64,000 bases of DNA from Nitrososphaerales archaeon. Lineage in GTDB: Archaea; Thermoproteota; Nitrososphaeria; Nitrososphaerales; UBA213. The position numbers and the translations under genes are program-made. The notes beneath the pieces were generated by a model. That model was given only the letters and a program-made list of their open reading frames with translations. It was not told the DNA's origin and searched no databases. Each line of letters begins with the position of its first letter. The stretch's first letter is position 1. Shown piece by piece: positions 15,781-58,323 of this stretch. The stretch is from the NCBI GenBank assembly GCA_965197925.1, contig CBDAOC010000020.1:160001-224000 (forward strand), written 5' to 3'.

Positions 15781-15793
15781 ACTGACACCTTAT

Positions 15794-15874
15794 TATTGTT
15801 CATATTGTTCATATTGTTCATATTGTTCATATTGTTCATATTGTTCATATTGTTCATATTGTTCATATTGTTCA
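15794..15874. repeat. perfect tandem repeat (TATTGTTCA)x9
   Basis: Nine identical 9-bp units read directly. Confidence 0.97.
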
Positions 15875-15979
15875 TGTTGCGCAATATTTATAGGCAACCT
15901 AAACTGTATATTGTTGAACAACATGCACATGCAATTAAACCTTGTTCCTTGGCTAGAAGTGATTGATCTTGGTCAGATA

Positions 15980-23741: not shown

Positions 23742-25705
23742 TGCTGTTCCTGCTTGCCTTCTTCAGTACCTGTAGTCTGGTCTTGGCTTGCTCCTGTAGT
23801 CTGGTCTTGGCTTGCTCCTGTAGTCTGGTCTTGGCTTGCTCCTGTAGTCTGGTCTTGGCTTGCTCCTGTAGTCTGGTCTTGGCTTGCTCCTGTAGTCTGG
23901 TCTTGGCTTGCTCCTGTAGTCTGGTCTTGGCTTGCTCCTGTAGTCTTTCCTGCTGCCTGATAAACCTGTGCGCTTACCTCACCTAAAATATTTTTTAGTT
24001 CTTGAATTTTTGTTTTCAAGGTATTGATATCACTACCAATCACTGCTTTCATAGCAGCAACCGCTGTATTGATCTGTTCTGTCTGTTCGCTTGTAAGCTT
24101 ATCTTTAAGATCTTGTTTGACCAATTTCTCCGCAGTATAAATCAAATTATCAGCTTCGTTTCCACTTTCCGCGTCTTCCTTCCTCTTTTTATCTTCCTCA
24201 GCGAATTGGTCAGATTCTTTCTTTAGTTTCTCTATCTCCTCCTTCGAAAGTTTTGTGGTTGCCGATATAGTTATCTTCTGTTCCTTCGCAGTTGCAAGAT
24301 CCTTTGCAGATACATGTAGTATCCCGTTGGAATCTATATCAAATGTAACTTCTATTTGTGGAACACTTCTTGGAGCAGGAGGAATTCCATCGAGGTTGAA
24401 CATTCCCAATGATATGTTATCAGCCGCCATCGATCTCTCACCCTGCACAATATGTATTGTGACCGAAGTCTGATAATCTGCAGCAGTTGTAAATATCTTG
24501 CTCTTCTTCACAGGTATAGTTGTGTTACGCTCTATCACTGGTTCACGTAAACCACCAAGAACCTCTACTCCAAGCGTTAGTGGGGTTACATCTAACAGTA
24601 CAATATCCTTTGAAATATCTCCCCCAATAATTGCACCCTGTATTGCAGCACCAATAGCTACTGCTTCCATTGGATCTACTCCTCCTTCGGCTTCCTTACC
24701 CATCACTTCTGCCACAAATTTAAGTAGAATTGGCATTCGAGTTGGCCCGCCTATTAAAATAATTTTATCAACTTGATCTGGCTTTAGTTGTGCATCTCCC
24801 AATGCTTGCATAATAGATGATTTGCAACGCCCAACTATCGGCCTAACAATATCCTCCAATGTAGAGCGGGTAGATTGCATTGTTAGGTTCTTGGGAGAGT
24901 TGGTAGACTTATCATATGAGATAAATGGTAAATTAATTTCTGTAGTCATAGTTGATGATAATTCTATTTTCGCCTTTTCTGCAGCTTCCCTTATTCTGGT
25001 CATAGCGGTTCTATCACTGGTTAGATCCGTACCACTTTCTTCTCTAAACTTGTTAATTATGTCATCTACCAACACATTATCCATGTCTGTACCACCGAGT
25101 TGTGTATCACCTGATGTACTTTTCACTTCAAATACACCACCGCCCAACTCCATTATAGTAACATCTAAAGTACCTCCTCCAAAATCAAAGACCATTATCT
25201 TCAGATCCTTCTCTGCCTTGTCAAGACCATAAGCTAGGGAAGCAGCTGTTGGCTCATTGATTATCCTTACAACTTCCAAACCTGCAATAGTACCCGCATC
25301 TTTAGTGGCTTGCCTTTGATTATCATTAAAATATGCAGGAACAGTTATCACTGCTTTATCGACAGGTTCGCCCAAAAAGGTTTCCGCATCTTTCTTGATC
25401 TTCTGTAGTATAAATGCCGAAATTTGTTGTGGTGTGTATTCCTTTCCATAAACTCTGAACTTGAAGTCAGAGCCCATCTTGCGTTTTGCTGCAATAACCG
25501 TACCGCCAGGATTGGTTACAATTTGCCTTCTTGCAGGTTCACCAACCAGTAGCTCCCCATCTTTGGTTAGAGCAACTACAGAAGGAAAAGCCTTTCCACC
25601 CAGAGTTACCCCTTCAGCAGCAGGTATAATAGTAGGTTTGCCACCAACTATAACTGCCGCTGCACAATTGCTAGTACCCAAATCTATACCAATTATCTTG
25701 CCCAT
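23738..25705 (-). CDS. dnaK: chaperone DnaK
   Basis: [22 protein letters not shown]. Confidence 0.98.
23769..23946 (-). repeat. perfect 24-bp tandem repeat x7.4 encoding (TTGASQDQ)7 in the DnaK tail
   Basis: CCTGTAGTCTGGTCTTGGCTTGCT units, identical. Confidence 0.97.
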
Positions 25706-43787: not shown

Positions 43788-43873
43788 GCATCATCTCCTA
43801 ATAACAGATTAATTGAGCTTCTGGAATATATGTTTCTTCTAGGAACTACCATTGGTTCGTGACATGTAATTAA

Positions 43874-44921
43874 GAGCCTATCCTAAAATTCTAGCTGATA
43901 GTTAACGATTGGTAGAAATGATAACATTTAGAATGCAAGAATATTAGTTCATACTGCTAGGTTTAGTTTTCTTACTATTGATTTTATTAGTATTGTAGAT
44001 AGTAGATACTAGAAACAGTTGCATTAACGTGTTTATGACACTACCAATATATCCCTCTACTCTATTAAGCAGTTAGCAAATTCTACTAGCGCCTGATAAT
44101 TTTCCTTCTTCTTCTCGAACCTTACCAATAACTTTCTGAACCTGTTATGCCAAGATGCGGTTCTTTCTACAACCCATCTCTTTGCTTTGTACAAATTCTT
44201 TTTCAACACTTCACCCTTATGACGAATGTGATCCACATATCCCCTTCCTAACTCCATATTTCATACTCTATCTCAGGGAAATCATATCCTATTCATGCAT
44301 ATGTTCTGTTTAACTTTGGGCCTATCAACAACAATGCTATCTATTGTAGGAAAGGCTGATTTCATATCGTGCTTGTTTGCTCCAGTAATTACAGATGAGA
44401 GAGGAATACCTCTTCTATCAACCAGCATGTGACGTTTGGTACCTAGCTTGCCTCTATCCGTTGGGTTTGCTCCGGCCGTTTTCCCCCTAATGGGGCCTTC
44501 AGTAACGCTATCCATGGATTGCCAGTCCCATCCTATACCCTTCAATTCATCATATATTTCCAGCAGCCTCTTCCATACCTTCTTGAATACTCCTATCCCA
44601 ATCCATTCCTGAAATCTTGCGTGGCAAGTTGAGCCAGAACCAAATTCTTTAGATACTTTCTTCCACTGGCATCCAGTTCTTAATACGTACAGTATTCCAT
44701 TCAACACTTTTCTAAATGGCACAGCTGGCCTTCCAACTGTTCTTGCTGGTTTCCCTGGCGGCAGTACTAGTTTGAACTCTACCCATAGATTGTCTGGTAT
44801 ATGCCATATGGTTGGCATGCTCTTTTTCTTTGATTTTCTCACAAATTTAGCTAGAGAGAACAGATCTAGATCTGTTTCGGTATAAACAATTAGGCTATGA
44901 TGTTAATTTTCGGATAAGCTC
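43874..44921 (-). mobile_element. IS5-family (IS1031-like) element, frameshifted transposase, copy 1
   Basis: IR GAGCCTATCCTAAAATT/AATTTTCGGATAAGCTC, TAA duplication; LRTGCQW, DRGKLGTKRH, RWVVERT. Confidence 0.93.
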
Positions 44922-45079
44922 TAAGTAAAAGTGTTGATGATACTTCCCCTTTCTTTGAGTTGCTTTCTGGAGTTCTTCCTTCACTTTCTATCTGACCCTA
45001 ATAGAATAGGAGAATCTAGTACGCTGATTGTTGCTTATCTGCTATTTGTTATTGTAATTATTATAGAATCGATTTGCTT

Positions 45080-45471
45080 CAACAATGATCTCCTTGAATA
45101 ACTCGATTTGAATCAATCTTTCGGACACTCCATTTACGTAGATTTCTTAACTTCTCTTCCTATCTGAAAGCACGATGCTCATTTTGTAGAACTATGGGTT
45201 CATGTCCACTTTTTTGATGGAAATAGGCGTATAATTTACCAGGCTTATGGAGCATTACTACATTGACGTTTGATTCTACTAGGTATTTTAATGCTTCAGT
45301 AGAAACAGAGTCATTCCATTTGATGATTACATCATCAAATGGACAGGTCCTTACGGGCAGTTCTAAAACATCTCTTTTGTTAGAGAAAGGATCTATTCCT
45401 TGAGAAAATATCAACCTTGTATTCTTCACTTTGATCGAAAGTCCATAACCACGTAAGAACAGGCTTTTCAC
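45080..45471 (-). pseudogene. cas1: stand-alone Cas1 (casposase-like) N-terminal relic 1
   Basis: LFLRGYGLSIKVKN.RLI, VII...SVSTEAL.YL..NVNVV.L...GK, then broken KIDS-IELFK: Cas1 N-terminal signature. Confidence 0.75.
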
Positions 45472-45551
45472 AATAGGATCTAAGGCAATAGTGATCTAAA
45501 GCTTTACGACAGAGCGTCAGATTTCCGTGCGTAAAAGGGGGGATAGTATTT

Positions 45552-47081
45552 TTATTGAGGCTCAATAGTTGCTGGAGGTTTGCTTGAGATAGCATAGGTG
45601 ACCCAGGTCACACTTTCAATTTCGTTACTTATCCTGTTAGATATCTTTTCAAGCAATTCATATGGCAGTCTAGTCCAATCTGCTGTCATAGCGTCAACAG
45701 ACTCTACAACCTTTACAGTGACAATGCTGCCATGTACCCTCTCGTCGCCCAGAACTCCAACCGCTTTGTCATCTCCAACCACTGCAAACGCCTGCCATAT
45801 CTTGTCATACATTTTCGACTTTAAAAGTTCATCTTCAACTATTTTACTGGCTTTTTTACATATATCGATCTTTTCTCTTGTAATTTGCCCAATTATTCGT
45901 ACTGCGAGTCCAGGGCCTGGGAAGGGATGGCGCTTGATCAAGCTTTCAGGTATATCCACTAGTTTACCAACTTCCTTTACCTCATCTTTGTACAAACTAC
46001 GTAACGGTTCTATCACTCTAAAGTTCAGGTCTTTAGGAAGTCCAGCCACGTTGTGGTGTGTTTTTATTAACGAAGCTGGCCCCTTGGAAACGCCGCTCTC
46101 TATCACATCAGGGTAAAGGGTGCCTTGTGCTAACCACTGGACAAGTCTATGTTCATTCGCAACCTCTTCAAATATCCTCCCAAACTCCTCACCAATTATA
46201 ATACGCTTCCTTTCTGGATCAGTTACACCTTTTAATTTCTTTAGAAATCTTTCCTCAGCATCAACATAAATTAGATTGATACCAAAATTATCCTTGAATA
46301 TTTTGATTACTTCCTCCACTTCACCTTCTCTAAGTAACCCATGATTCACAAATACACATAACAGCTTATCTCCAATTGCTTTATGGACTAACAAAGCAGT
46401 AACTGTGGAATCAATACCACCACTAGTAGCACATATAATCGTCTCACTTCCTATCTTTTGCTTAATCTCAGTAACTATTCTATTTACGAAGTCTTTCATA
46501 TCCCATTCTTGTTTTGCCCCGCAAATTTTCAACACAAAATTCTTCAAGACCGCCATTCCTCTTTCCGTATGTGCTACTTCAGGGTGGAATTGTATACCAA
46601 AGATGTTTCTTTCTTTATTGACTATTGCAGCAGCAAATGAACTGCTAGTATGAGCAATGCTTTTGAAGCCATTTGGAAGCTGTTCAGTAGCGTCACCATG
46701 GCTCATCCAGCACCTAATTGTAGAATCTAATCCATTGAAAAGATCTGAAGGATCATCGATTATCAATTCAGCGCTACCATATTCTCTATTTGCCCTTTTG
46801 ATTTTGCCTCCAAATGAATGCACAAGCGTCTGGTGTCCGTAGCATATGCCGAGTATGGGTTTGTCCAGTTCTAATATCCACTTATCACAGATTGGCGCAT
46901 TTTCTTCGTAAACACTTGCAGGTCCTCCAGAGAATATTATTCCCTTTGGTTCCATCAGTTCAAGTGCCTCTGAAGATATATTATATGGAACAAGTTCCGC
47001 GTAGACATTGAATTCCCTTATTCTTCTACAGATCAAGTGTGAGTATTGGGAACCGAAATCTAGAACCACAATTTTATCCAT
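45552..47081 (-). CDS. guaA: GMP synthase (glutamine-hydrolysing)
   Basis: LDFGSQY, GICYG, QFHPEV, SGGIDS, HPFPGPGL, KPPATIE. Confidence 0.98.
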   Translation of the reverse strand: MDKIVVLDFGSQYSHLICRRIREFNVYAELVPYNISSEALELMEPKGIIFSGGPASVYEENAPICDKWILELDKPILGICYGHQTLVHSFGGKIKRANREYGSAELIIDDPSDLFNGLDSTIRCWMSHGDATEQLPNGFKSIAHTSSSFAAAIVNKERNIFGIQFHPEVAHTERGMAVLKNFVLKICGAKQEWDMKDFVNRIVTEIKQKIGSETIICATSGGIDSTVTALLVHKAIGDKLLCVFVNHGLLREGEVEEVIKIFKDNFGINLIYVDAEERFLKKLKGVTDPERKRIIIGEEFGRIFEEVANEHRLVQWLAQGTLYPDVIESGVSKGPASLIKTHHNVAGLPKDLNFRVIEPLRSLYKDEVKEVGKLVDIPESLIKRHPFPGPGLAVRIIGQITREKIDICKKASKIVEDELLKSKMYDKIWQAFAVVGDDKAVGVLGDERVHGSIVTVKVVESVDAMTADWTRLPYELLEKISNRISNEIESVTWVTYAISSKPPATIEPQ

Positions 47082-47086
47082 GACAC

Positions 47087-47638
47087 TTACCCTGTTTTTT
47101 CATGCATCCTTGCAAGTACCCATGCAGCAGTGTTAATAATCTCGTCTAATCTTTCCTTATTCCCGTAATTATTTATCATGATCCTTTGTATCATACCATC
47201 TTCATCATCAATGTAATAATCAATGATCTCACTTTGTTGTAACTCTCCACGCTCAACACGTTCCATATCTTTATCTTTCATTCCCTCGAGTATTCTTTTT
47301 AAGAAGAATGATTGGAACGGAGGAGTGTTAACATTGAATTTCATATCACTTGTAGGTACGATGGCAACTGAATGCGTTGCTGGGTAAGCATTTGCAAGTA
47401 TCATGTTATTTTTACTCTTCAATTGTCTCATATCCGAGGTTTCATATTCCTCTCCCACCTGACGGCTCAGCGCAACTGCTGGTTTGAAACTGACATCTTT
47501 GAGAGTATTATCTATTACAATCAATGTCATCTTTAGTCTCTCAACCTCATCTTCCTTTTCGTTGATCTGTTTAACAAGCCACTCTCTTACTTCTGCTAAA
47601 CGCTTGACTCTATCCTCGGAATAATTCACAGTTTTCAT
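47087..47638 (-). CDS. conserved hypothetical protein
   Basis: Coiled-coil N-terminus, SFKPA, TPPFQSFF, INNYG..ERL; upstream ORF extension looks spurious. Confidence 0.7.
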   Translation of the reverse strand: MKTVNYSEDRVKRLAEVREWLVKQINEKEDEVERLKMTLIVIDNTLKDVSFKPAVALSRQVGEEYETSDMRQLKSKNNMILANAYPATHSVAIVPTSDMKFNVNTPPFQSFFLKRILEGMKDKDMERVERGELQQSEIIDYYIDDEDGMIQRIMINNYGNKERLDEIINTAAWVLARMHEKTG

Positions 47639-48479
47639 AAAGTAATCTTGTATAATAAATTTAATCGGGTACAAGTTATCGTCAATGGATAGGATTATTG
47701 TAGACTTTGGTAGTGTGAGAATGTAAAATGCTGAGCCTGCAAATCGATTTGGTTTGTATCCCCTCCTCAAAACTATGATATCCTGTGTAGAGATATCAAC
47801 ATCAAAGTAACTAAGATCATACTTCCTTGGGAAAGACATCTTTCTAGAAGGAATATAATATGTATCTACCTTACCTCGTTAAAGAGTTAATATTATTATT
47901 TTCTAGAGTAGAACGTTTTGATTACTTTTTTTAGTTAATTATATATGGTCATTAGGTAGGGGTAATGGTATAAGGAAATTACTAGTTTTACTATGATATA
48001 CTATAGGGTACCCAATAAATAAAATAAAGATAAAACAAGTAATCAGAGACAGTAGCATGGTTGGGCGGTTTTTGAGGGTATTACCTATTGCCGCTAAAAG
48101 TGCCATTCAAAAGACGATACCTATTGGGCTAGACTAACATTACATATGATTTTAGGTATCGAATCTAAAATGATGGAAGCTAATTGAGAGGTTGTTGAAG
48201 TAAGATGATTAAATTGACCAGGAGATCGTGGGAAAGATGATTTTAGCAACCAATAGATCGAAGAAAAGGTGAATGCCACGAAAGGGGTTGTCCTCAATAT
48301 TAAATATATGAATAGTAGGTTTATTGGTAAGAAATCTATATGTGAAGAACTAGAAGTCCAATTTATAACGAAATGAAAACAAAACCTTGAATTCAAATAT
48401 AATTGAAAACAGGAGAAAAAAAATAATAAATACAAACAGAGTGTCTAGAGTTCTGGTGATTATCCTACTCACATCGAAA

Positions 48480-49232
48480 TTAGTTCACTTTATCCAGAAT
48501 CTCGATATTGTTTAATGTTATATTCTCGAATCCTATTAATGTGTTGGGTGATATATTGTATAAACGTGCTTTTGAAAATGTTGCCAGCCACTCTAACAAT
48601 TCACGCCCAACATCCATCTTTGTAACCTTTAGTTTTGTATCACCTATTTTTGTTTTTGAGAATTTGCCAATCTTATTTCCAAAGTCCATCCCTATTAATA
48701 CAATATTCATTGCATTGAATTCGCTTGCCAAAAATACTGCACGATCACCATCTGTGAAACCACCAAAGTTATATATTTGATGTAAGGGTTTTACCTGAGT
48801 TGTTCCTATACATCGTTTCATCTTTGGAACCAAATTTCTCAATAGATGCACATTATCTCCATGTGCATGTATGATCATTATAGAGCCCAAGTTATCAGCT
48901 TTTAGCAGATGTTCATGACTTCCGTCCAGATCGGTTACGACTATATCTGGTTTAATATCATTCTCAATAAGCGCCTCTAACGCACTATCGGCAGCTATTA
49001 TGATAAAAGATCTTAGATTCTTAATAGTTTCAATTCCATTTTCTAACGATGGACCAGATCCGACGACTAGAACATTTTTACCCGCAACTAATTCCTTCAA
49101 AATATGTGGGTCAAGACTCTTACTTTCTAATATCTCACTCAATAACTGGGCCGAGCTTTGATCTTCTACAATACTATAGCCAAATTTTGATCGTATCTTG
49201 TCATACCATCGTAGCCATAAATCTACCTGCAT
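48480..49232 (-). CDS. mptE: 6-hydroxymethyl-7,8-dihydropterin pyrophosphokinase (DUF115)
   Basis: GSGPSL, IAADSA, VTDLDG, HAHGDN, GGFTDGDRA. Confidence 0.9.
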   Translation of the reverse strand: MQVDLWLRWYDKIRSKFGYSIVEDQSSAQLLSEILESKSLDPHILKELVAGKNVLVVGSGPSLENGIETIKNLRSFIIIAADSALEALIENDIKPDIVVTDLDGSHEHLLKADNLGSIMIIHAHGDNVHLLRNLVPKMKRCIGTTQVKPLHQIYNFGGFTDGDRAVFLASEFNAMNIVLIGMDFGNKIGKFSKTKIGDTKLKVTKMDVGRELLEWLATFSKARLYNISPNTLIGFENITLNNIEILDKVN

Positions 49233-49507
49233 TTTACGTGATCTACTATTGCTACCAAATAAACTTCTTTACTATACACAATAAATCTATAGGGAACTAA
49301 TAGGAAATGGAACTAGTAAACCTAGATAAAATGAGCTATAGTTAAAGTTTGGCAAATCTGGAACATTTAAATTTTGGATGGTAATGATTTGAATTAGTTT
49401 CTAAAGTACAGATGAAGGGTTGATAAAGAATCGTAAAAAATATCACAAATTTCAAACCCACTGAAGAAATAGCACCGATAATATTACCATATTATCAACG
49501 ATAAGCA

Positions 49508-50371
49508 ATGAAACAATGCTTCCTCGGAAGAGTTCCGATTGATAGGTTAAGAATAATGGGTGTGATCAATGTTAGCCCAGAATCCTTCTACAAAAAGTCC
49601 ATCAAAGTTTCCGCGAAGGAGATTACTAAAACTGCATCTGAAATTGAGGAGCAAGGTGCTGACTTCATAGATATAGGGGCGATGTCCACTGCCCCCTACC
49701 TCAAGACGATGATATCACAAGAAAATGAAATTGAAAGAATCAAGGTTGCAGTACGAGCCACGTTAGATGCATGTAATTTACCCATTTCTGTGGATACGCC
49801 TCGAGCGGCAACAGCAGATACCGCACTTGGTCTTGGGTCTACAATAGTGAATGACGTGACTGGCTTGAAATTTGATGACAACATGTCTAAAATCATTCAT
49901 GACAACGATGCCTCTGTGATACTTTGTGCATACGAAAAATCTATCGTATCAAGAGATGTGGTAAAAGTTACAATAAACACTCTAGAAAGGAGCATACACT
50001 TGGCAAGGGATGCTAACATAGGATCAAGGAAGATTGTTATAGATCCTTCAATTGGTTTTTTCCGGAAGAAGGGTAGTCATCCATTCTTTACTAGAATGTC
50101 AGGGAGTAATTGGTTCGATAGAGATCTAATTTTAATAACTATGTTAAAACGCTTGCACACTCTTCATAAACCCATTTGCATCTCTGTGTCAAGAAAGTCC
50201 TTCATAGGCAAGATTCTAAATCTAAAGAATCCTGATGATAGATTGATCGGATCAGTTACAGCTGAAGCCATCTGTGTTCTTAATGGAGCAAATATAATCA
50301 GGACACATAATGTGAATGAGACCAAACATGCCGTCAAAATAGCACAGTCTTTGTTAGAACATTCAAGATAG
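49508..50371 (+). CDS. folP: dihydropteroate synthase
   Basis: MGVINVSPESF, DIGAMST, DPSIGF, SRKSFIG, RTHNV. Confidence 0.93.
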   Translation: MKQCFLGRVPIDRLRIMGVINVSPESFYKKSIKVSAKEITKTASEIEEQGADFIDIGAMSTAPYLKTMISQENEIERIKVAVRATLDACNLPISVDTPRAATADTALGLGSTIVNDVTGLKFDDNMSKIIHDNDASVILCAYEKSIVSRDVVKVTINTLERSIHLARDANIGSRKIVIDPSIGFFRKKGSHPFFTRMSGSNWFDRDLILITMLKRLHTLHKPICISVSRKSFIGKILNLKNPDDRLIGSVTAEAICVLNGANIIRTHNVNETKHAVKIAQSLLEHSR

Positions 50372-50722
50372 ATTTCCAAAAACTATTAAGATTTCAAATT
50401 GTATTTGATTAATACCAAATTGAAACAAAGACGTCTAAATAATTGTTTTCAGTATTATATAATCAATTGTATTTGTTGGAAGTATAGAAAGGTGTGAAAG
50501 GTCTTTGTTAAAAGGAAATTATTAAATAAGAATACTTTAAACTTTGGAACTCAAAATATAGTTTTACTCAGCATTTTGAGAATATTATTTAGAATTAGAT
50601 TTGAATTTCAAGATTGTCAAGATTGTATCAAGATTTACCTGCTATCATTGAGAATGCACCAAATTTAATTGATCTCAGGATAGATTATAGTTGTTACTTC
50701 TGATTTGTTTGTAAGTAACTTA

Positions 50723-51779
50723 GAGCTTATCCGAAAATTAACATCATAGCCTAATTGTTTATACCGAAACAGATCCAGATCTGTCCTCTCTAGCTAAATT
50801 TGTGAGAAAATCAAAGAAAAAGAGCATGCCAACCATATGGCATATACCAGACAATCTATGGGTAGAGTTCAAACTAGTACTGCCGCCAGGGAAACCAGCA
50901 AGAACAGTTGGAAGGCCAGCTGTGCCATTTAGAAAAGTATTGAATGGAATACTGTACGTATTAAGAACTGGATGCCAGTGGAAGAAAGTATCTAAAGAAT
51001 TTGGTTCTGGCTCAACTTGCCATGCAAGATTTCAGGAATGGATTGGGATAGGAGTATTCAAGAAGGTATGGAAGAGGCTGCTGGAAATATATGATGAATT
51101 GAAGGGTATAGGATGGGACTGGCAATCCATGGATAGCGTTACTGAAGGCCCCATTAGGGGGAAAACGACCGGAGCAAACCCAACGGATAGAGGCAAGCTA
51201 GGTACCAAACGTCACATGCTGGTTGATAGAAGAGGAGTACCTCTCTCATCTGTAATTACTGGAGCAAATAAACACGATATGAAATCAGCCTTTCCTACAA
51301 TAGATAGCATTGTTGTTGATAGGCCCAAAGTTAAACAGAACATATGCATGAATAGGATATGATTTTCCAGAGATAGAGTATGGAGTATGAAATATGGAGT
51401 TAGGAAGGGGATATGTGGATCACATTCGTCATAAGGGTGAAGTGTTGAAAAAGAATTTATACAAAGCAAAGAGATGGGTTGTAGAAAGAACCGCATCTTG
51501 GCATAACAGGTTCAGAAAGTTATTGGTAAGGTTCGAGAAGAGAGAGGAAAATTATCAGGCGCTAGTAGAATTTGCTAACTGCCTAATAATATACAGAGCG
51601 ATATATTGGTAGTGTCATAAACACGTTAATGCAACTGTTTCTAGTATCTACTATCTACAATACTAATAAAATCAATAGTAAGAAAACTAAACCTGACAGT
51701 ATGAACTAATATTCTTGCATTCTAAATGTTATCATTTCTACCAATCATTAACTATCAGCTAGAATTTTAGGATAGGCTC
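50723..51779 (+). mobile_element. IS5-family (IS1031-like) element, copy 2
   Basis: Near-identical inverted copy of 43874-44921; TTA duplication; same frame breaks. Confidence 0.93.
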
Positions 51780-52042
51780 TTAGCTAAACGTCCTGTACAA
51801 ATGATGAATGTTTAATATTATGTGGAGTGTTGCAATATCCAAATTTCATCACAATGAAGATTTCTGAGTCTGGATTTAACTCGATGTTTTCACATAAATT
51901 TCAAAGCCTTTATTACCTTCAATTTGTTGATTTAACCCTGATCTTGGAGTACGGCTTGTCAAGAGGAATTATAAAGTCAATCATAATTCCCATCCAAATT
52001 CATCCATCTTAGAAAGTGTGATAAGGAGATGAAATTTAGGGA

Positions 52043-52585
52043 TTGCATAAAAAATTATTAGAAATTGAATCTTATCCCCCTTCTGAGGATACGTTTTTTT
52101 TGGCTGACTATATTAAAAATGCAAAAGGCCGATCTGCATTAGAAGTTGGTACTGGTTCTGGTTATTTGGCTGATCTATTAGCAAAATCATTTTCTTTTGT
52201 CGTAGCTACCGATATAAATTTCAATTTCTTAAAAAAACAAAACTACTATACGTTCAATAATATTTGCTGTAACGGAGCTGATTCCCTAAACTATCAGTTT
52301 GACCTTGTAATTTGCAATATGCCCTATCTAAATACTGATGAAATATTGGACGTCAGAACAGACGGTGGAAAAGAAGGATTAGAAATTCCGATGAATATTA
52401 TCAACTCAGTTAAATCACGAATAAAACTAGATGGGAAATTAATCTATATCACTTCGTCACTCTCTAATTATAAAAAATTAATTGCCTTTACCGAACTTGA
52501 AGGTTTCAATGTAAGTATTGGTGCAAGAAAGAAATTGTTTTTTGAAGATTTGATACTTGTTGACGCAACCAGATTAGATTCTTAA
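52043..52585 (+). CDS. HemK2/PrmC-like SAM methyltransferase
   Basis: YPPSEDT, LEVGTGSG, NMPY, DGGKEG. Confidence 0.85.
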   Translation: MHKKLLEIESYPPSEDTFFLADYIKNAKGRSALEVGTGSGYLADLLAKSFSFVVATDINFNFLKKQNYYTFNNICCNGADSLNYQFDLVICNMPYLNTDEILDVRTDGGKEGLEIPMNIINSVKSRIKLDGKLIYITSSLSNYKKLIAFTELEGFNVSIGARKKLFFEDLILVDATRLDS

Positions 52586-52854
52586 GTTTTCTTTTCCAAT
52601 CATAGTTGTTACATCTACTATCTGAGACGTGTTATCGTTTACACCAAAATCAAAATGATTGTTTATACTTTTTTGATTATATGTTCGGCACCTGAAGGGA
52701 TTGCATCTTTTATCTGAGGCTCTCCAAAATATTCACCCACACAAGCTCCAGCAAGAATATTTGTCGTTAGATTAACTTCGTCCTACCAATTGAATATATT
52801 ACTTCCGAAAGATTTAGATCATTGTCTTCCTATACTCTTCATGACCTACGATGG

Positions 52855-53235
52855 GTTGCATTAAGGAACTCTATCCGTGAAACAATGGTTCAGAATTTAT
52901 CCATTTCTTGAGATAATCCACATTTATTTTATTCCTAAAAATGTCGTATTGATGACATAGTATTACTGATTCATGTCCTCCAATCTAATGGAGGTGATAA
53001 ATTATCCATCTCATACAATATTACTAAATTGATATTCGATTCAGTTAGATAATGCAAAGCTTCTATGAAAGCTAGCCTGCCTTGTATCAATAACTTATCA
53101 AATGGACAAGGACCTAACAGTGAGCATCATTTTTTTTCTATTATTAGATATGGGATGTATTCTTGAGAGTCCTAAACTTGTATTTTTTAATTTAATTGAC
53201 AGGCCATACCCATTTACGAATAGACCCTTCGCCAC
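52855..53235 (-). pseudogene. cas1: stand-alone Cas1 (casposase-like) N-terminal relic 2
   Basis: Broken frames KGLFVNGYGLSIKLKNT..CPFDKLLIQG..EALHYLTESNINLVIL..GGHESVIL.HQYDIFRN..IVSRIEFL, colinear with relic 1; absent from the ORF track. Confidence 0.72.
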
Positions 53236-53378
53236 GTATTATTCGTTTTAATGATCTACAGCTTTAAAACGAGGGATCAGATTTCCATGCGCAAGTGGGG
53301 ACATCACTTTTGCTGAACCTCAATAAAGAGATTAATTCTCATGACGAATTTCTTTCAACTTTAATGGGCTAATTAGTA

Positions 53379-54296
53379 CTAGACGGCGAATTTTGAAAGT
53401 TCTCTTGCTAGCTCGATCGTTCTTTCCACGCTATAACCCTCACCAGCAGATTGACCGAGCACGACTCGATTGAAACCTATTTCCTTTAACTTTGCAATAT
53501 CAGCTCCGATCTCCTCGATTGTTCCAGTCATTGGCATTCTTTCATCAGAGCTATTTTGAATAAGGCGAGGAAATGTCAGGGTCGTCATATCAAAATCATC
53601 GGGAGCTTTCTCAGCTTTTTCTATCTCCCGTTTAATAGAATCAAGAACTTGTTTTAACTGATCAATTGGGCCTCCCACTACTCCTAGCCATCCGTCAGAG
53701 TATTTTGCAATTCTTTGGAATGTTTTTGACGAAAATCCTCCAAGCAATATTCTTGGATGAGGTTTCTGAAGCGGCTTGGATCCAATATTAGAAGCCGGGA
53801 TATTGTAAAATTTACCCTTAAACTCAACAATATCATCAGTCCATACCCTTTTCAACGCTTCAAGAAATTCATTCTGCCTATTACCCCTATTCTCAAATGG
53901 AACGTTTGAGGTCTGATACTCATATTTTGACCACCCGATTCCTAGTCCTGCAATTACTCGCCCTCCTGATAAAACGTCAAGAGTTGCAAATTCACGCCCT
54001 AAGACAACGGGATTATGAAAAAGAACATCGATAACACCTGTTCCTAGCAAAATTTTTTTTGTAAAAGCAGCAACATAGGAGAGTAGGTTTATGGGATCGT
54101 AGATATTCTGCCATTCTACCGGCATAATTCCGTTAGCGGAGCCGGGATACTTTGATTGTGGATTAATTGGCCACAAGAGTCTCTCAATCACCCATAAAGA
54201 TTCAAGATTTTCTTTTTCAGCAGCCTGAGCTAATTTGATCACATTTTCTCTCGTTGCATTCTTACCTACCTGTGGAAGCATTAAACCCAACTTCAT
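53379..54296 (-). CDS. LLM-class (F420-dependent) oxidoreductase
   Basis: ATLDVLSGGRVIAGLGIGW, KPLQKPHP, DGW. Confidence 0.9.
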   Translation of the reverse strand: MKLGLMLPQVGKNATRENVIKLAQAAEKENLESLWVIERLLWPINPQSKYPGSANGIMPVEWQNIYDPINLLSYVAAFTKKILLGTGVIDVLFHNPVVLGREFATLDVLSGGRVIAGLGIGWSKYEYQTSNVPFENRGNRQNEFLEALKRVWTDDIVEFKGKFYNIPASNIGSKPLQKPHPRILLGGFSSKTFQRIAKYSDGWLGVVGGPIDQLKQVLDSIKREIEKAEKAPDDFDMTTLTFPRLIQNSSDERMPMTGTIEEIGADIAKLKEIGFNRVVLGQSAGEGYSVERTIELARELSKFAV

Positions 54297-54347
54297 CTAC
54301 CTTCTACCTCGATCCAATATTCGATATTTCAATTCAGTCATATATTT

Positions 54348-55436
54348 GAGGCTTGGGCATAATTCAATTATAATATTATTTTGAAATTGGTTCTTTAGCT
54401 TCCCAACATGTGCTTCAATGCTCTCAGAGGCCTTCCTGTCAAGTAGTAGTATACCATCAGCTGGTATAGCAATATAGAAATCAGAACGATGCTCCTAGCT
54501 TTATCAAATCCTCTAACTGGCAATGGATCTATGGTAAATACATCCTTCATATGCTCTATCAATGGCTCAACGCTTATGCTCCTCCGAGAATATACATGCT
54601 GCCCAAATTCAGAGTTATAGAACTGCAGCAATGCCAGTCTATTATTATCTGTAGTATGCCTATACCTTTCCAATGGGAATACAAGCAGGAATCCTCTATA
54701 CCTGCTGAAATCACATAACTTGTGATCATCATATCCTTCATCTCCTACAACATACATCACCATTCCTGTAGGCAATGAAGATGTGATGCTTTCATACATC
54801 ATGTTATCAGTAATGTTAGCTGTTGTGAAATCAGCTGATAATGGAACTATCAACGAACCTGTGCTACATGCTAGATGCAGTTTGTATCCGAATACCCATC
54901 CCTTGGTTCTGCTGTAGCCCCATCGAGCATCTGTATCTATACCAGAGCGTGGCACTTCATTCTTCTTCATGCTAGATTTGTGCCATACATGTCCCTTTGC
55001 TTTCAACAATGAACTGTCAACGGATATTATGGCTGGGTCTACCAACCCATCTTTTATGAAGAGCATACCCATAGCACCTATCCTTGATCTTATGTCAATT
55101 GATACGGCCTTGACCTTCTGTCGAATGTTCTTCTGTCTGGCAACCTATCAAGACCACATGCCTTCATTACCTTCCTGTTGTATGGCATGTCTATCGAATA
55201 GTATTCATGCAAAGCATTGTTGCTTGGTATTCTTACCCATACTCTAACGATGAAGCATCTACCATAACTGTAGGAGAATAGTAGAATGGTCTACCCCTTT
55301 TCCTATTAGGTTTTGACCAAGGAATCACGTCAATCAAAAATAATATACGAAGGAGTATCGAGTCTGAGCTAAACATATCAACAATGAAAAATGGAACCTG
55401 ATCTTATCGTTTCGAACTAAATTACGCCCAAGCCTC
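54348..55436 (-). mobile_element. DDE IS (IS982/IS5-like), frameshifted transposase, 8-bp TSD
   Basis: IR GAGGCTTGGGCATAATT/AATTACGCCCAAGCCTC; ATATATTT on both sides; DSS, GYKLH, GDEGYD, R..VE. Confidence 0.92.
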
Positions 55437-55576: not shown

Positions 55577-56602
55577 TTATTGCGATTGAATATTATTAAA
55601 AAATTTTGATACTTCCTGTAACGTAGGAGATTCAGTCCTCGATATATAATAAGCTGCACATACATTTGCAAATAATAGTCGTTCGCTTGCCTGTAATCCG
55701 CATAGGTATCCAATAATATCTGCAGCATCCCATACGTCACCTGCACCTGTAGAGACTACAGTATCAAAATCTAAAGATTTCACAAACGAAGTTTCGACAC
55801 CATTGGATGTGGAAGAGCCAATGGGAGTGTGTATATCTACATTAACCGACAGTTTGGAAGAGAGTGCCTTCGCAGCAGCACTAATGTCCTTATTGGAATA
55901 GTTTATTGGTAGAGGTAAGAGACTTAAGGATTCCATGGTTAATCTACATTCGTTTTCATTAAGACTCAATACATTCATGTGACCAGAAAGTTCATCCAAG
56001 CAATGTCTGAAATCTTTTTTCCTAGTGCTTATATCTGCAGGGTCCATGAAGCATAATGCGTCTTTGGGAGTGTTTTTGAATACCTTTAATGCTAGTTCTG
56101 TCCCCTTAATGTTACTTGCCCAGTTGGCGATCACAACAGCTGATGCTTTTCTTATCATATCCATTTCATTCTTACGAAGTTCTTTGGCACCAAAATTTTT
56201 CATATCTCCAACATCGCTAATCATCACATTTGCCTTTCTCTTGTCTTTCCTTTCAATCTCGAATGATACAGTATTCCCCTGCTTTCCATCTGTGATTAAG
56301 AATTTTACATTCTTATATTTTGCAAACATATTCTGAAGAATATTTTTTCCTAAATTATCTGCAATTGTTATTACACATACTTTTGCGCCAACTTTTGCTA
56401 AAGCGTATGCAATGTTGATTGCGTTACCTCCTATCATCTCTTTTTGTGCTATGTCGCGTATGCTACCACCGCCTATCTTCGACTTCGCCTTAACTTCAGA
56501 GAATAATAAGTTAAGATCATTTATCATGACAATTCTATCAACGAAGAAATCATGCATTACAACTATCTGTTTAGATTCAATATCCCTTATGTTATTAAAC
56601 AT
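55577..56602 (-). CDS. PfkB-family carbohydrate kinase
   Basis: GGNAINIA, NENE, STGAGDVW. Confidence 0.88.
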   Translation of the reverse strand: MFNNIRDIESKQIVVMHDFFVDRIVMINDLNLLFSEVKAKSKIGGGSIRDIAQKEMIGGNAINIAYALAKVGAKVCVITIADNLGKNILQNMFAKYKNVKFLITDGKQGNTVSFEIERKDKRKANVMISDVGDMKNFGAKELRKNEMDMIRKASAVVIANWASNIKGTELALKVFKNTPKDALCFMDPADISTRKKDFRHCLDELSGHMNVLSLNENECRLTMESLSLLPLPINYSNKDISAAAKALSSKLSVNVDIHTPIGSSTSNGVETSFVKSLDFDTVVSTGAGDVWDAADIIGYLCGLQASERLLFANVCAAYYISRTESPTLQEVSKFFNNIQSQ

Positions 56603-56625
56603 GAAAATAAAATGGGTTTTGGACT

Positions 56626-58323
<1,698 letters not shown>

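Follow-up and report, generated by a model that had tools for sequence, protein, structure and literature searches.

Two casposase relics probably mark the outer ends of one decayed family-1 casposon island at the guaA stop codon of a Nitrososphaerales archaeon

Introduction

Casposons are mobile elements integrated by a Cas1 protein, the casposase, and those of family 1 are known from Thaumarchaeota as NitAR1-C1, NitAR2-C1, NitNF5-C1/C2, NitDev-C1/C2 and NitEve-C1 (PMC4046053, PMC6563490, PMC8464041). Their terminal inverted repeats (TIRs) start TAAAAA-n-CCCCCC (PMC6563490, supplement 3), and the same source gives ef-2, phosphoribosylamine-glycine ligase and an intergenic site as their targets. 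According to PMC8464041, a family-1 casposase joins the element ends 13 bp apart, the target being duplicated by repair, and the N. koreensis casposase follows a target rule of A1, A11 and T13 with a TTT leader. Tandem reuse of a site, inactivated partners and solo TIRs are also on record (PMC6563490, PMC4779613), and the Methanosarcina casposons, as described in PMC4779613, use 14-bp targets at tRNA-Leu or intergenic sites. In addition, a “family 5” of casposases has been proposed from hot springs, mostly lacking a family B polymerase (PolB) and forming a clade near type I-A Cas1 (PMC9755687); further background is found in PMC6614799, PMC9939771 and PMC13343696. Here, we analyse two Cas1 relics, A and B, lying in a stretch of 64,000 nucleotides of a Nitrososphaerales archaeon, which we call the window (G000:C20:160001-224000 of a 2.9-Mb assembly; its named relatives are Nitrososphaerota).

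We put at roughly 0.8 the probability that a single family-1 casposon island, now decayed, stood at the stop codon of guaA, the GMP synthase gene, and that A and B are its outer ends. In common with family 1 are the TIR start, the 13-bp A1/A11/T13 target, the insertion at the 3' end of a protein-coding gene, the tandem reuse of the site, the protein-primed PolB (pPolB) and small core genes of the intact relatives, and a sister place in the Cas1 tree. Unlike the published members, the locus has guaA as its target, its casposase clade is ~38–40% identical to the ef-2-type casposases and carries an extra insertion of ~34 residues, and the window copies are dead. It resembles the Methanosarcina solo TIRs and inactivated tandem casposons (PMC4779613) in its lone ends, in its tandem elements sharing a target copy and in the inactivation of one partner, but it belongs to family 1, has 5' casposase scraps beside both ends and holds a foreign host gene between them. 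As for family 5, compared by description only, the idea of a polymerase-less Cas1 transposon is already published there, whereas the PolB-less elements reported here are nested inside family 1.

Two casposase relics adjoining family-1 ends

44961..45471, minus strand: casposase relic A; tblastn match to residues 1–172 of ~370 of the homologue P0001, with stops and a frameshift
~53235 to 52883, minus strand: casposase relic B; residues 2–120 of P0001, in three frames, more decayed than A
45490..45553, minus strand: TIR A, an element end that reads AAAAATACTATCCCCCC... inward; the guaA stop codon owes its last two letters to the first two A's of this TIR
53248..53311, minus strand: TIR B, element end read inward AAAAGTGATGTCCCCAC..., decayed
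45554..45566, minus strand: 13-bp target copy ATTGAGCCTCAAT, the last codons of guaA; fits A1/A11/T13
45552..47081, minus strand: guaA (GMP synthase), the intact target gene; Pfam GATase and GMP_synt_C, ending IEPQ* as in empty-site relatives

Relic A matches the intact 370-residue P0001 at 69% and 51% identity in two frames, and relic B matches it at E=6e-18. Read as a 103-residue open reading frame (ORF), A stays below the Pfam Cas1 cut-off (E=2.9e-4, 20.5 bits against 22.3), and as a longer read-through it is above it (E=3e-5); B is absent from the list given by the Pfam Cas1 family search of the genome. Of the 77 candidates for the 103-residue ORF, 43 are longer proteins; every one of these has Pfam Cas1, with identities of up to 71%. 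The intact proteins nearest to A and B are P0001, P0003 and P0037. In the PDB, the intact homologue is best matched by chain 6opm_A (E=2e-27), which we take to be the M. mazei casposase. An earlier note on this DNA had described two N-terminal Cas1 pseudogenes on the minus strand, and these stand with slightly revised limits (A to 44961, B to ~52883), its landmarks GYGLSIK.KNT, CPFD, EAL.YL.ESN.N.V.L and GHE being readable in the translations. The C-terminal catalytic part is absent from both, since A ends at residue 172 and B at residue 120, before the conserved E/H/D-E columns that the intact clade members (~370 residues) have kept, and because both stop ahead of this part, neither relic can be active. 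Casposases of this clade also lack a C-terminal helix-turn-helix, judged by length alone.

The same non-coding block lies ahead of both relics, as the earlier note had seen, with TIR A and TIR B aligned at 42/53 columns and none of 2000 shuffles reaching their score. By its sequence, this block is the family-1 casposon TIR: TIR A reads TAAAAATACTATCCCCCCTTTTACG and matches published family-1 TIRs. An independent profile, made from 40 TIR ends of relatives and no sequence of this genome, finds 8 sites in the genome at E<=0.2, with TIR A at 7.5e-4; these 8 replace an initial count of 10 copies, which came from a model trained on those same copies. In the genome and its relatives, the motif also occurs where no cas1 follows it, in head-to-head arrangement, and in inverted pairs whose targets are duplicated, the duplications in relatives being of 13 bp. 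A cas1 gene adjoining the element end, which had been pointed out before, is ordinary in family 1 (110–140 bp from the end in five PolB-bearing elements). No exact partner end for A was found beside a TIR elsewhere in the genome by a 13-mer search allowing one mismatch, with a query one base off the final target.

Relics A and B are 59% identical and differ at 67/118 third versus 24/117 second codon positions (p=8e-9). This third-position excess means that they diverged under selection as working genes, in two elements, and a local segmental duplication of one relic is thereby ruled out. A DNA tree of 16 rows, none of its branches starred, gives no resolution on a sister relation of the two relics, and the states derived in A recur in B (16/62) about as frequently as in G005 (14/62).

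Two other casposon traces of this genome lie on C1. The first, at G000:C1:77845-77930, is a solo TIR adjoining the ef-2 stop; ahead of it stand TTT and ATTGATAAAGAAT, which differs by one base from the published family-1 target, and an insertion sequence (IS) cuts the TIR off. The second, at L002:9613-10809, is an ef-2-type casposase of full length that has catalytic motifs and lies between IS elements with no convincing TIR nearby; no other intact casposase was found in the genome.

The guaA target and its casposase clade

The element end of relic A starts exactly at the guaA stop, with ATTGAGCCTCAAT followed by the TIR whose first A's complete TAA; the leader at this target is ACT, not TTT. 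At the same junction, the relative G351 carries a complete element of 7,760 bp, which is flanked by a perfect 13-bp duplication and holds an intact 371-residue casposase (66% identical to A) and a 621-residue pPolB (PF03175). The loci examined, a sample enriched for casposase loci, have 34 distinct guaA ends, 18 with a TIR and 16 empty. None of our claims rests on G270, and one counted row with a near-identical junction could be left out with the counts unaltered.

The Cas1 tree, a quick IQ-TREE run of 112 rows with SH-aLRT support, places A, B, a third relic on C18 and the relic of G005 within one 28-row clade (SH-aLRT 100), which is sister (99) to the casposases of ef-2-type family-1 elements and apart (96) from 30 rows of CRISPR type, a label not based on their arrays. 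The relics group with casposases and not with CRISPR Cas1, which answers the question that the earlier note had left to a phylogeny; branch length is 1.34 for B versus 0.47 for A. A guaA-type junction is present at 20/28 loci with an A/B-type casposase and an ef-2-type junction at 0/28, while the figures for loci with a sister-type casposase are 0/54 and 23/54, in both cases with loci that were not de-duplicated and junction patterns written after the data had been seen. A casposase clade specific to guaA is well supported. A and B are casposase relics adjoining element ends, and the intact members of their clade sit in TIR-bounded, pPolB-carrying elements at the guaA stop; of the two possibilities offered earlier, a decayed casposon or a compact IS-like transposon, the first is the right one.

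Short elements also occur. L075:5253-7500 (G162), inserted at guaA, is an element of 2.2 kb with near-identical TIRs and, at each end, a scrap of one of the two casposase types, and L178, L179 and L090 hold arrays of short (0.8–3 kb) TIR-bounded units split by the same 13-bp target, in a CRISPR-like layout.

Two elements, probably in one island

43871..44922, minus strand: IS5-family IS with DUF4096 and DDE domains, ~40 bp past the end of relic A; left inversion breakpoint
50722..51783, plus strand: IS5-family IS, inverted copy of the former, 97% identical; right inversion breakpoint
44923..50721, no strand: inverted segment (relic A, guaA, an ORF, mptE, folP), by synteny with G001, G005, G006 and G008
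53312..53324, plus strand: decayed distal target copy GCTGAACCTCAAT, 10/13 to the guaA target
53379..54296, minus strand: F420-dependent LLM oxidoreductase, with the distal target copy on one side and pfkB on the other; none found here in relatives
55577..56602, minus strand: pfkB, which converges on guaA at empty sites (G001, G006 and others); far boundary of the island

The gene order of G001 is Zn-ribbon, folP, mptE, ORF and guaA, followed by a convergent pfkB; G006 has the same order, and G005 and G008 have it up to guaA. In the window, the stretch from folP to relic A is flipped, with breakpoints at the two inverted IS5 copies, in a genome rich in insertion sequences (~50 near-full copies of this IS5). 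In the de-inverted order, guaA is followed by the target, TIR A, relic A, an IS, HemK2, relic B (which faces back), TIR B, GCTGAACCTCAAT, the LLM gene, an IS and pfkB. The flip could be a real inversion or a matter of assembly orientation, and the facing arrangement of A and B follows either way. Target duplications of the IS copies were considered as evidence for the inversion and set aside as uninformative, TTA standing on all four sides.

The flank of B has the form of the far-end junctions of guaA elements in relatives. GCTGAACCTCAAT matches the targets of elements outside guaA at no more than 8/13 positions, and 0.56% of consensus-like 13-mers in the genome match the guaA target as well as it does. 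With regard to the 13-bp duplication in the window, the copy at A fits fully and the distal copy fits at 10/13, the two being paired only after de-inversion. Contigs from 3/4 public runs, which may include the source sample, reproduce the unique blocks 44897–50746 and ~51755–54375 with no differences.

A and B could also both be family-1 ends with B an independent insertion at a guaA-like secondary site beside the LLM gene, brought close to A by chance or IS shuffling. In favour of this, the minus-strand flank of B shows A1 and A11 together with the published TTT leader, IS copies abound at the locus, and further TIR relics occur elsewhere in the genome, among them the same-clade relic at C18 away from guaA. 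We regard this as unlikely, given that B sits where the far end of a guaA element must be, between de-inverted guaA and pfkB and pointing inward, that its flank is nearer to guaA targets than to the others, and that a guaA element also shows TTT at its far-end junction, where it is the complement of the A run that follows. A and B are probably not at two separate sites, B most likely being the opposite end of one and the same guaA island, masked by the IS5-bounded inversion. The earlier idea of two independent insertions survives in so far as the codon positions call for two different elements and lacks support as to unrelated sites, against which the de-inverted locus and the 10/13 flank of B speak; the second end, said not to be visible, is probably B itself.

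A one-island history is likely. The older element, with its casposase at the far end (B), would have inserted first, and a newer one, with its casposase at the near end (A), would have reused the guaA-proximal junction and moved B outward; A is indeed less decayed than B, as expected if new elements enter beside guaA. Deletions may then have taken both polymerases and the inner TIR-target-TIR junction, after which an IS5 would have inserted behind A, and the part enclosed by two IS5 copies would have been inverted.

CRISPR context

CRISPR-associated Cas1 was considered as the source of the relics and set aside, since they stand apart from CRISPR-type Cas1 in the tree and no cas2 or array is nearby. 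The window holds no CRISPR-type repeat family among the 20 largest of its 24 direct-repeat families, 0 matches to the genome's own CRISPR repeat and, in a Pfam scan of 27 of its 98 ORFs, no other cas gene, in line with the earlier claim of a window free of arrays and further cas genes; no Rfam family overlaps the end motif. The Cas1-solo group 1 (inactive, Methanomicrobiales) was likewise rejected, because the intact homologues keep their catalytic residues and sit in TIR/pPolB elements; the tree held no group 1 sequence. We give hardly any credence to the motif being merely a promoter or leader, with the copies coming from one local duplication or from a CRISPR cas1. It does precede cas1 in both copies, and the genome does have a CRISPR-type cas1-cas2 elsewhere, but its occurrences without cas1, head to head and in inverted pairs, its match to published TIRs, the codon-position divergence, which excludes duplication of a pseudogene, and the tree all speak against it.

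That type I-B cas1 (L005:1090-2819; G000:C20:39-40.6 kb) reads as one ORF with cas2, with a cas4-like ORF ahead, and the CRISPR repeats lie far from it, at C20:871-874 kb. C-terminal Cas1 fragments of another lineage occur at G000:C17:38228-38686, C18:209338-209706 and C20:1036342-1036527, outside both family-1 clades (the C17 one having been placed in the tree). Perfect tandem repeats of 24, 9 and 9 nt are found inside ORFs at window positions 23745–23970, 15785–15888 and 56625–56723.

Elements with and without a polymerase

The C18 relic lies in a wreck (L001:4143-12016; G000:C18:187-195 kb) comprising a broken pPolB with family-1 small genes, head-to-head TIRs in a ~300-bp perfect inverted repeat, and then a TIR with the guaA-clade relic. 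Next come another TBP gene (85% to the C17 copy), three CRISPR repeats and, from the sister clade, a casposase scrap with a back-facing TIR. The layout of this wreck is that of the window, with two facing casposase scraps around a host gene.

In relatives, we counted 33 complete elements, namely 32 distinct ones with inverted TIRs and 13-bp duplications plus one dropped by a filter for A/T-only targets. Casposase and pPolB are both intact in 19, two have an intact casposase and a broken pPolB, three have an intact casposase without pPolB, and in nine the casposase is broken or absent. The three PolB-less elements (G129, 3.1 kb; G052, 3.3 kb; G180, 4.1 kb) have a perfect 13-bp duplication and no core small genes, and neither protein query nor Pfam PF03175 finds a pPolB in their genomes, that of G180 being one contig and 99% complete. 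The catalytic H and D/E motif is found by pattern in two of their casposases, the pattern missing the third. The G180 element (L089:2105-6189) lies at ef-2 and has identical TIRs, an intact casposase and a Pycsar-like cyclase and PycTM effector pair. All three belong to the sister clade, in three separate subclades among PolB-bearing elements, which suggests independent losses of pPolB.

These elements raise the possibility that A and B derive from compact, IS-like transposons in which Cas1 did without a polymerase from the start, as does L117, a member of the clade of A with an intact casposase, no pPolB match within 10 kb and an unresolved far end. For the window locus we consider this very unlikely. 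The three PolB-less elements fall outside the A/B clade, distributed as independent losses would be; within that clade, pPolB is present in each of the two complete elements whose casposase is intact, and those complete elements that lack PolB have a casposase that is broken; and G005, occupied at the same guaA site, shows a short, weak pPolB-like match downstream of cas1 (E=8e-4). The PolB-less elements thus keep the compact-transposon idea alive for family 1 and not for this locus, where the earlier note had proposed it.

A methyltransferase gene of foreign type between the relics

52043..52585, plus strand: HemK2/MTQ2-family protein methyltransferase (TIGR00537), a xenolog of the family labelled f12; the only copy in the genome over the cut-off
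52675..52782, minus strand: 3' scrap of an isocitrate/isopropylmalate dehydrogenase gene (tblastn E=5e-8), with DNA matches to f12 loci only

This HemK2 is 36–42% identical to six own-family orthologues, which are themselves 52–80% identical to each other, and up to 61% identical to f12 proteins, with which it groups at support 100/100. The pattern of guaA is the opposite (72–78% in its own family, 64–65% in f12 loci). In f12 genomes, the dehydrogenase (Pfam Iso_dh on the f12 protein) is the convergent neighbour of HemK2, and its scrap lies here between HemK2 and relic B. The HemK2 copy that G002 has after ksgA is missing from that place in this genome. Together, the f12 grouping, the f12 neighbour scrap and the lack of a copy after ksgA indicate that an f12-type chromosome piece replaced the native gene.

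From its position, HemK2 may have been delivered by a casposon: one element would have carried the f12 donor piece (HemK2 and the neighbour scrap), and this piece, having taken the place of the native HemK2, would for that reason have outlasted the decay around it. An unrelated transfer into a junk-rich site is possible. A broader and doubtful proposal is that family-1 casposons are site-specific cargo shuttles between families of ammonia-oxidising archaea, that their guaA branch delivered HemK2, and that the PolB-less elements with intact casposase are still mobile in an IS-like manner.

Points against a single island

Several observations weigh against our interpretation. Only the casposase was matched when 392 element ORFs were searched, and no remnant of pPolB (as the earlier note had said of PolB) or of a small core gene is seen in the window; the original gene content is therefore inferred from relatives, and the locus is classed as a relic and not as a complete family-1 member. 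The family-1 hallmark of three or four small genes upstream of pPolB is likewise missing from the window, and present in the C18 relic and the intact relatives. TIR B scores only E=8.9 with the relatives-only profile, the distal target is mismatched at 3/13 positions, and the guaA target is nearly palindromic (9/13 in the other orientation). The inner TIR-target-TIR junction is not left in the window. No contig of the public runs bridges the IS copies, so that block order and orientation rest on the assembly plus synteny, with no non-inverted or empty allele visible. The tree is a quick one in which the relics fill 21–41% of columns and the CRISPR-labelled rows had no array check, and no intact casposon in the examined set carries HemK2.

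Conclusions

Family-1 casposons were already known, and the window locus is mostly explained as the decay of such a known element; what appears to be new is the guaA-specific casposase clade and the family-1 elements without PolB. No PolB-less family-1 element was found in the literature searched, and neither there nor in the supplements of PMC6563490 was a guaA casposon found, subscription papers and the supplement of PMC8464041 lying outside this scope. If a casposon did deliver HemK2, a Cas1 transposon would in this case have exchanged a housekeeping gene of its host for that of another family. With the PolB-less elements that have an intact casposase, one can test directly whether casposons need the polymerase to move. 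The guaA and ef-2 types, moreover, form a natural pair with the same TIR, a different 13-bp core and the 34-residue insertion, which lets one ask how Cas1 integrases choose and change their target, a question relevant to how CRISPR leader-repeat recognition arose and to tools for site-specific integration.

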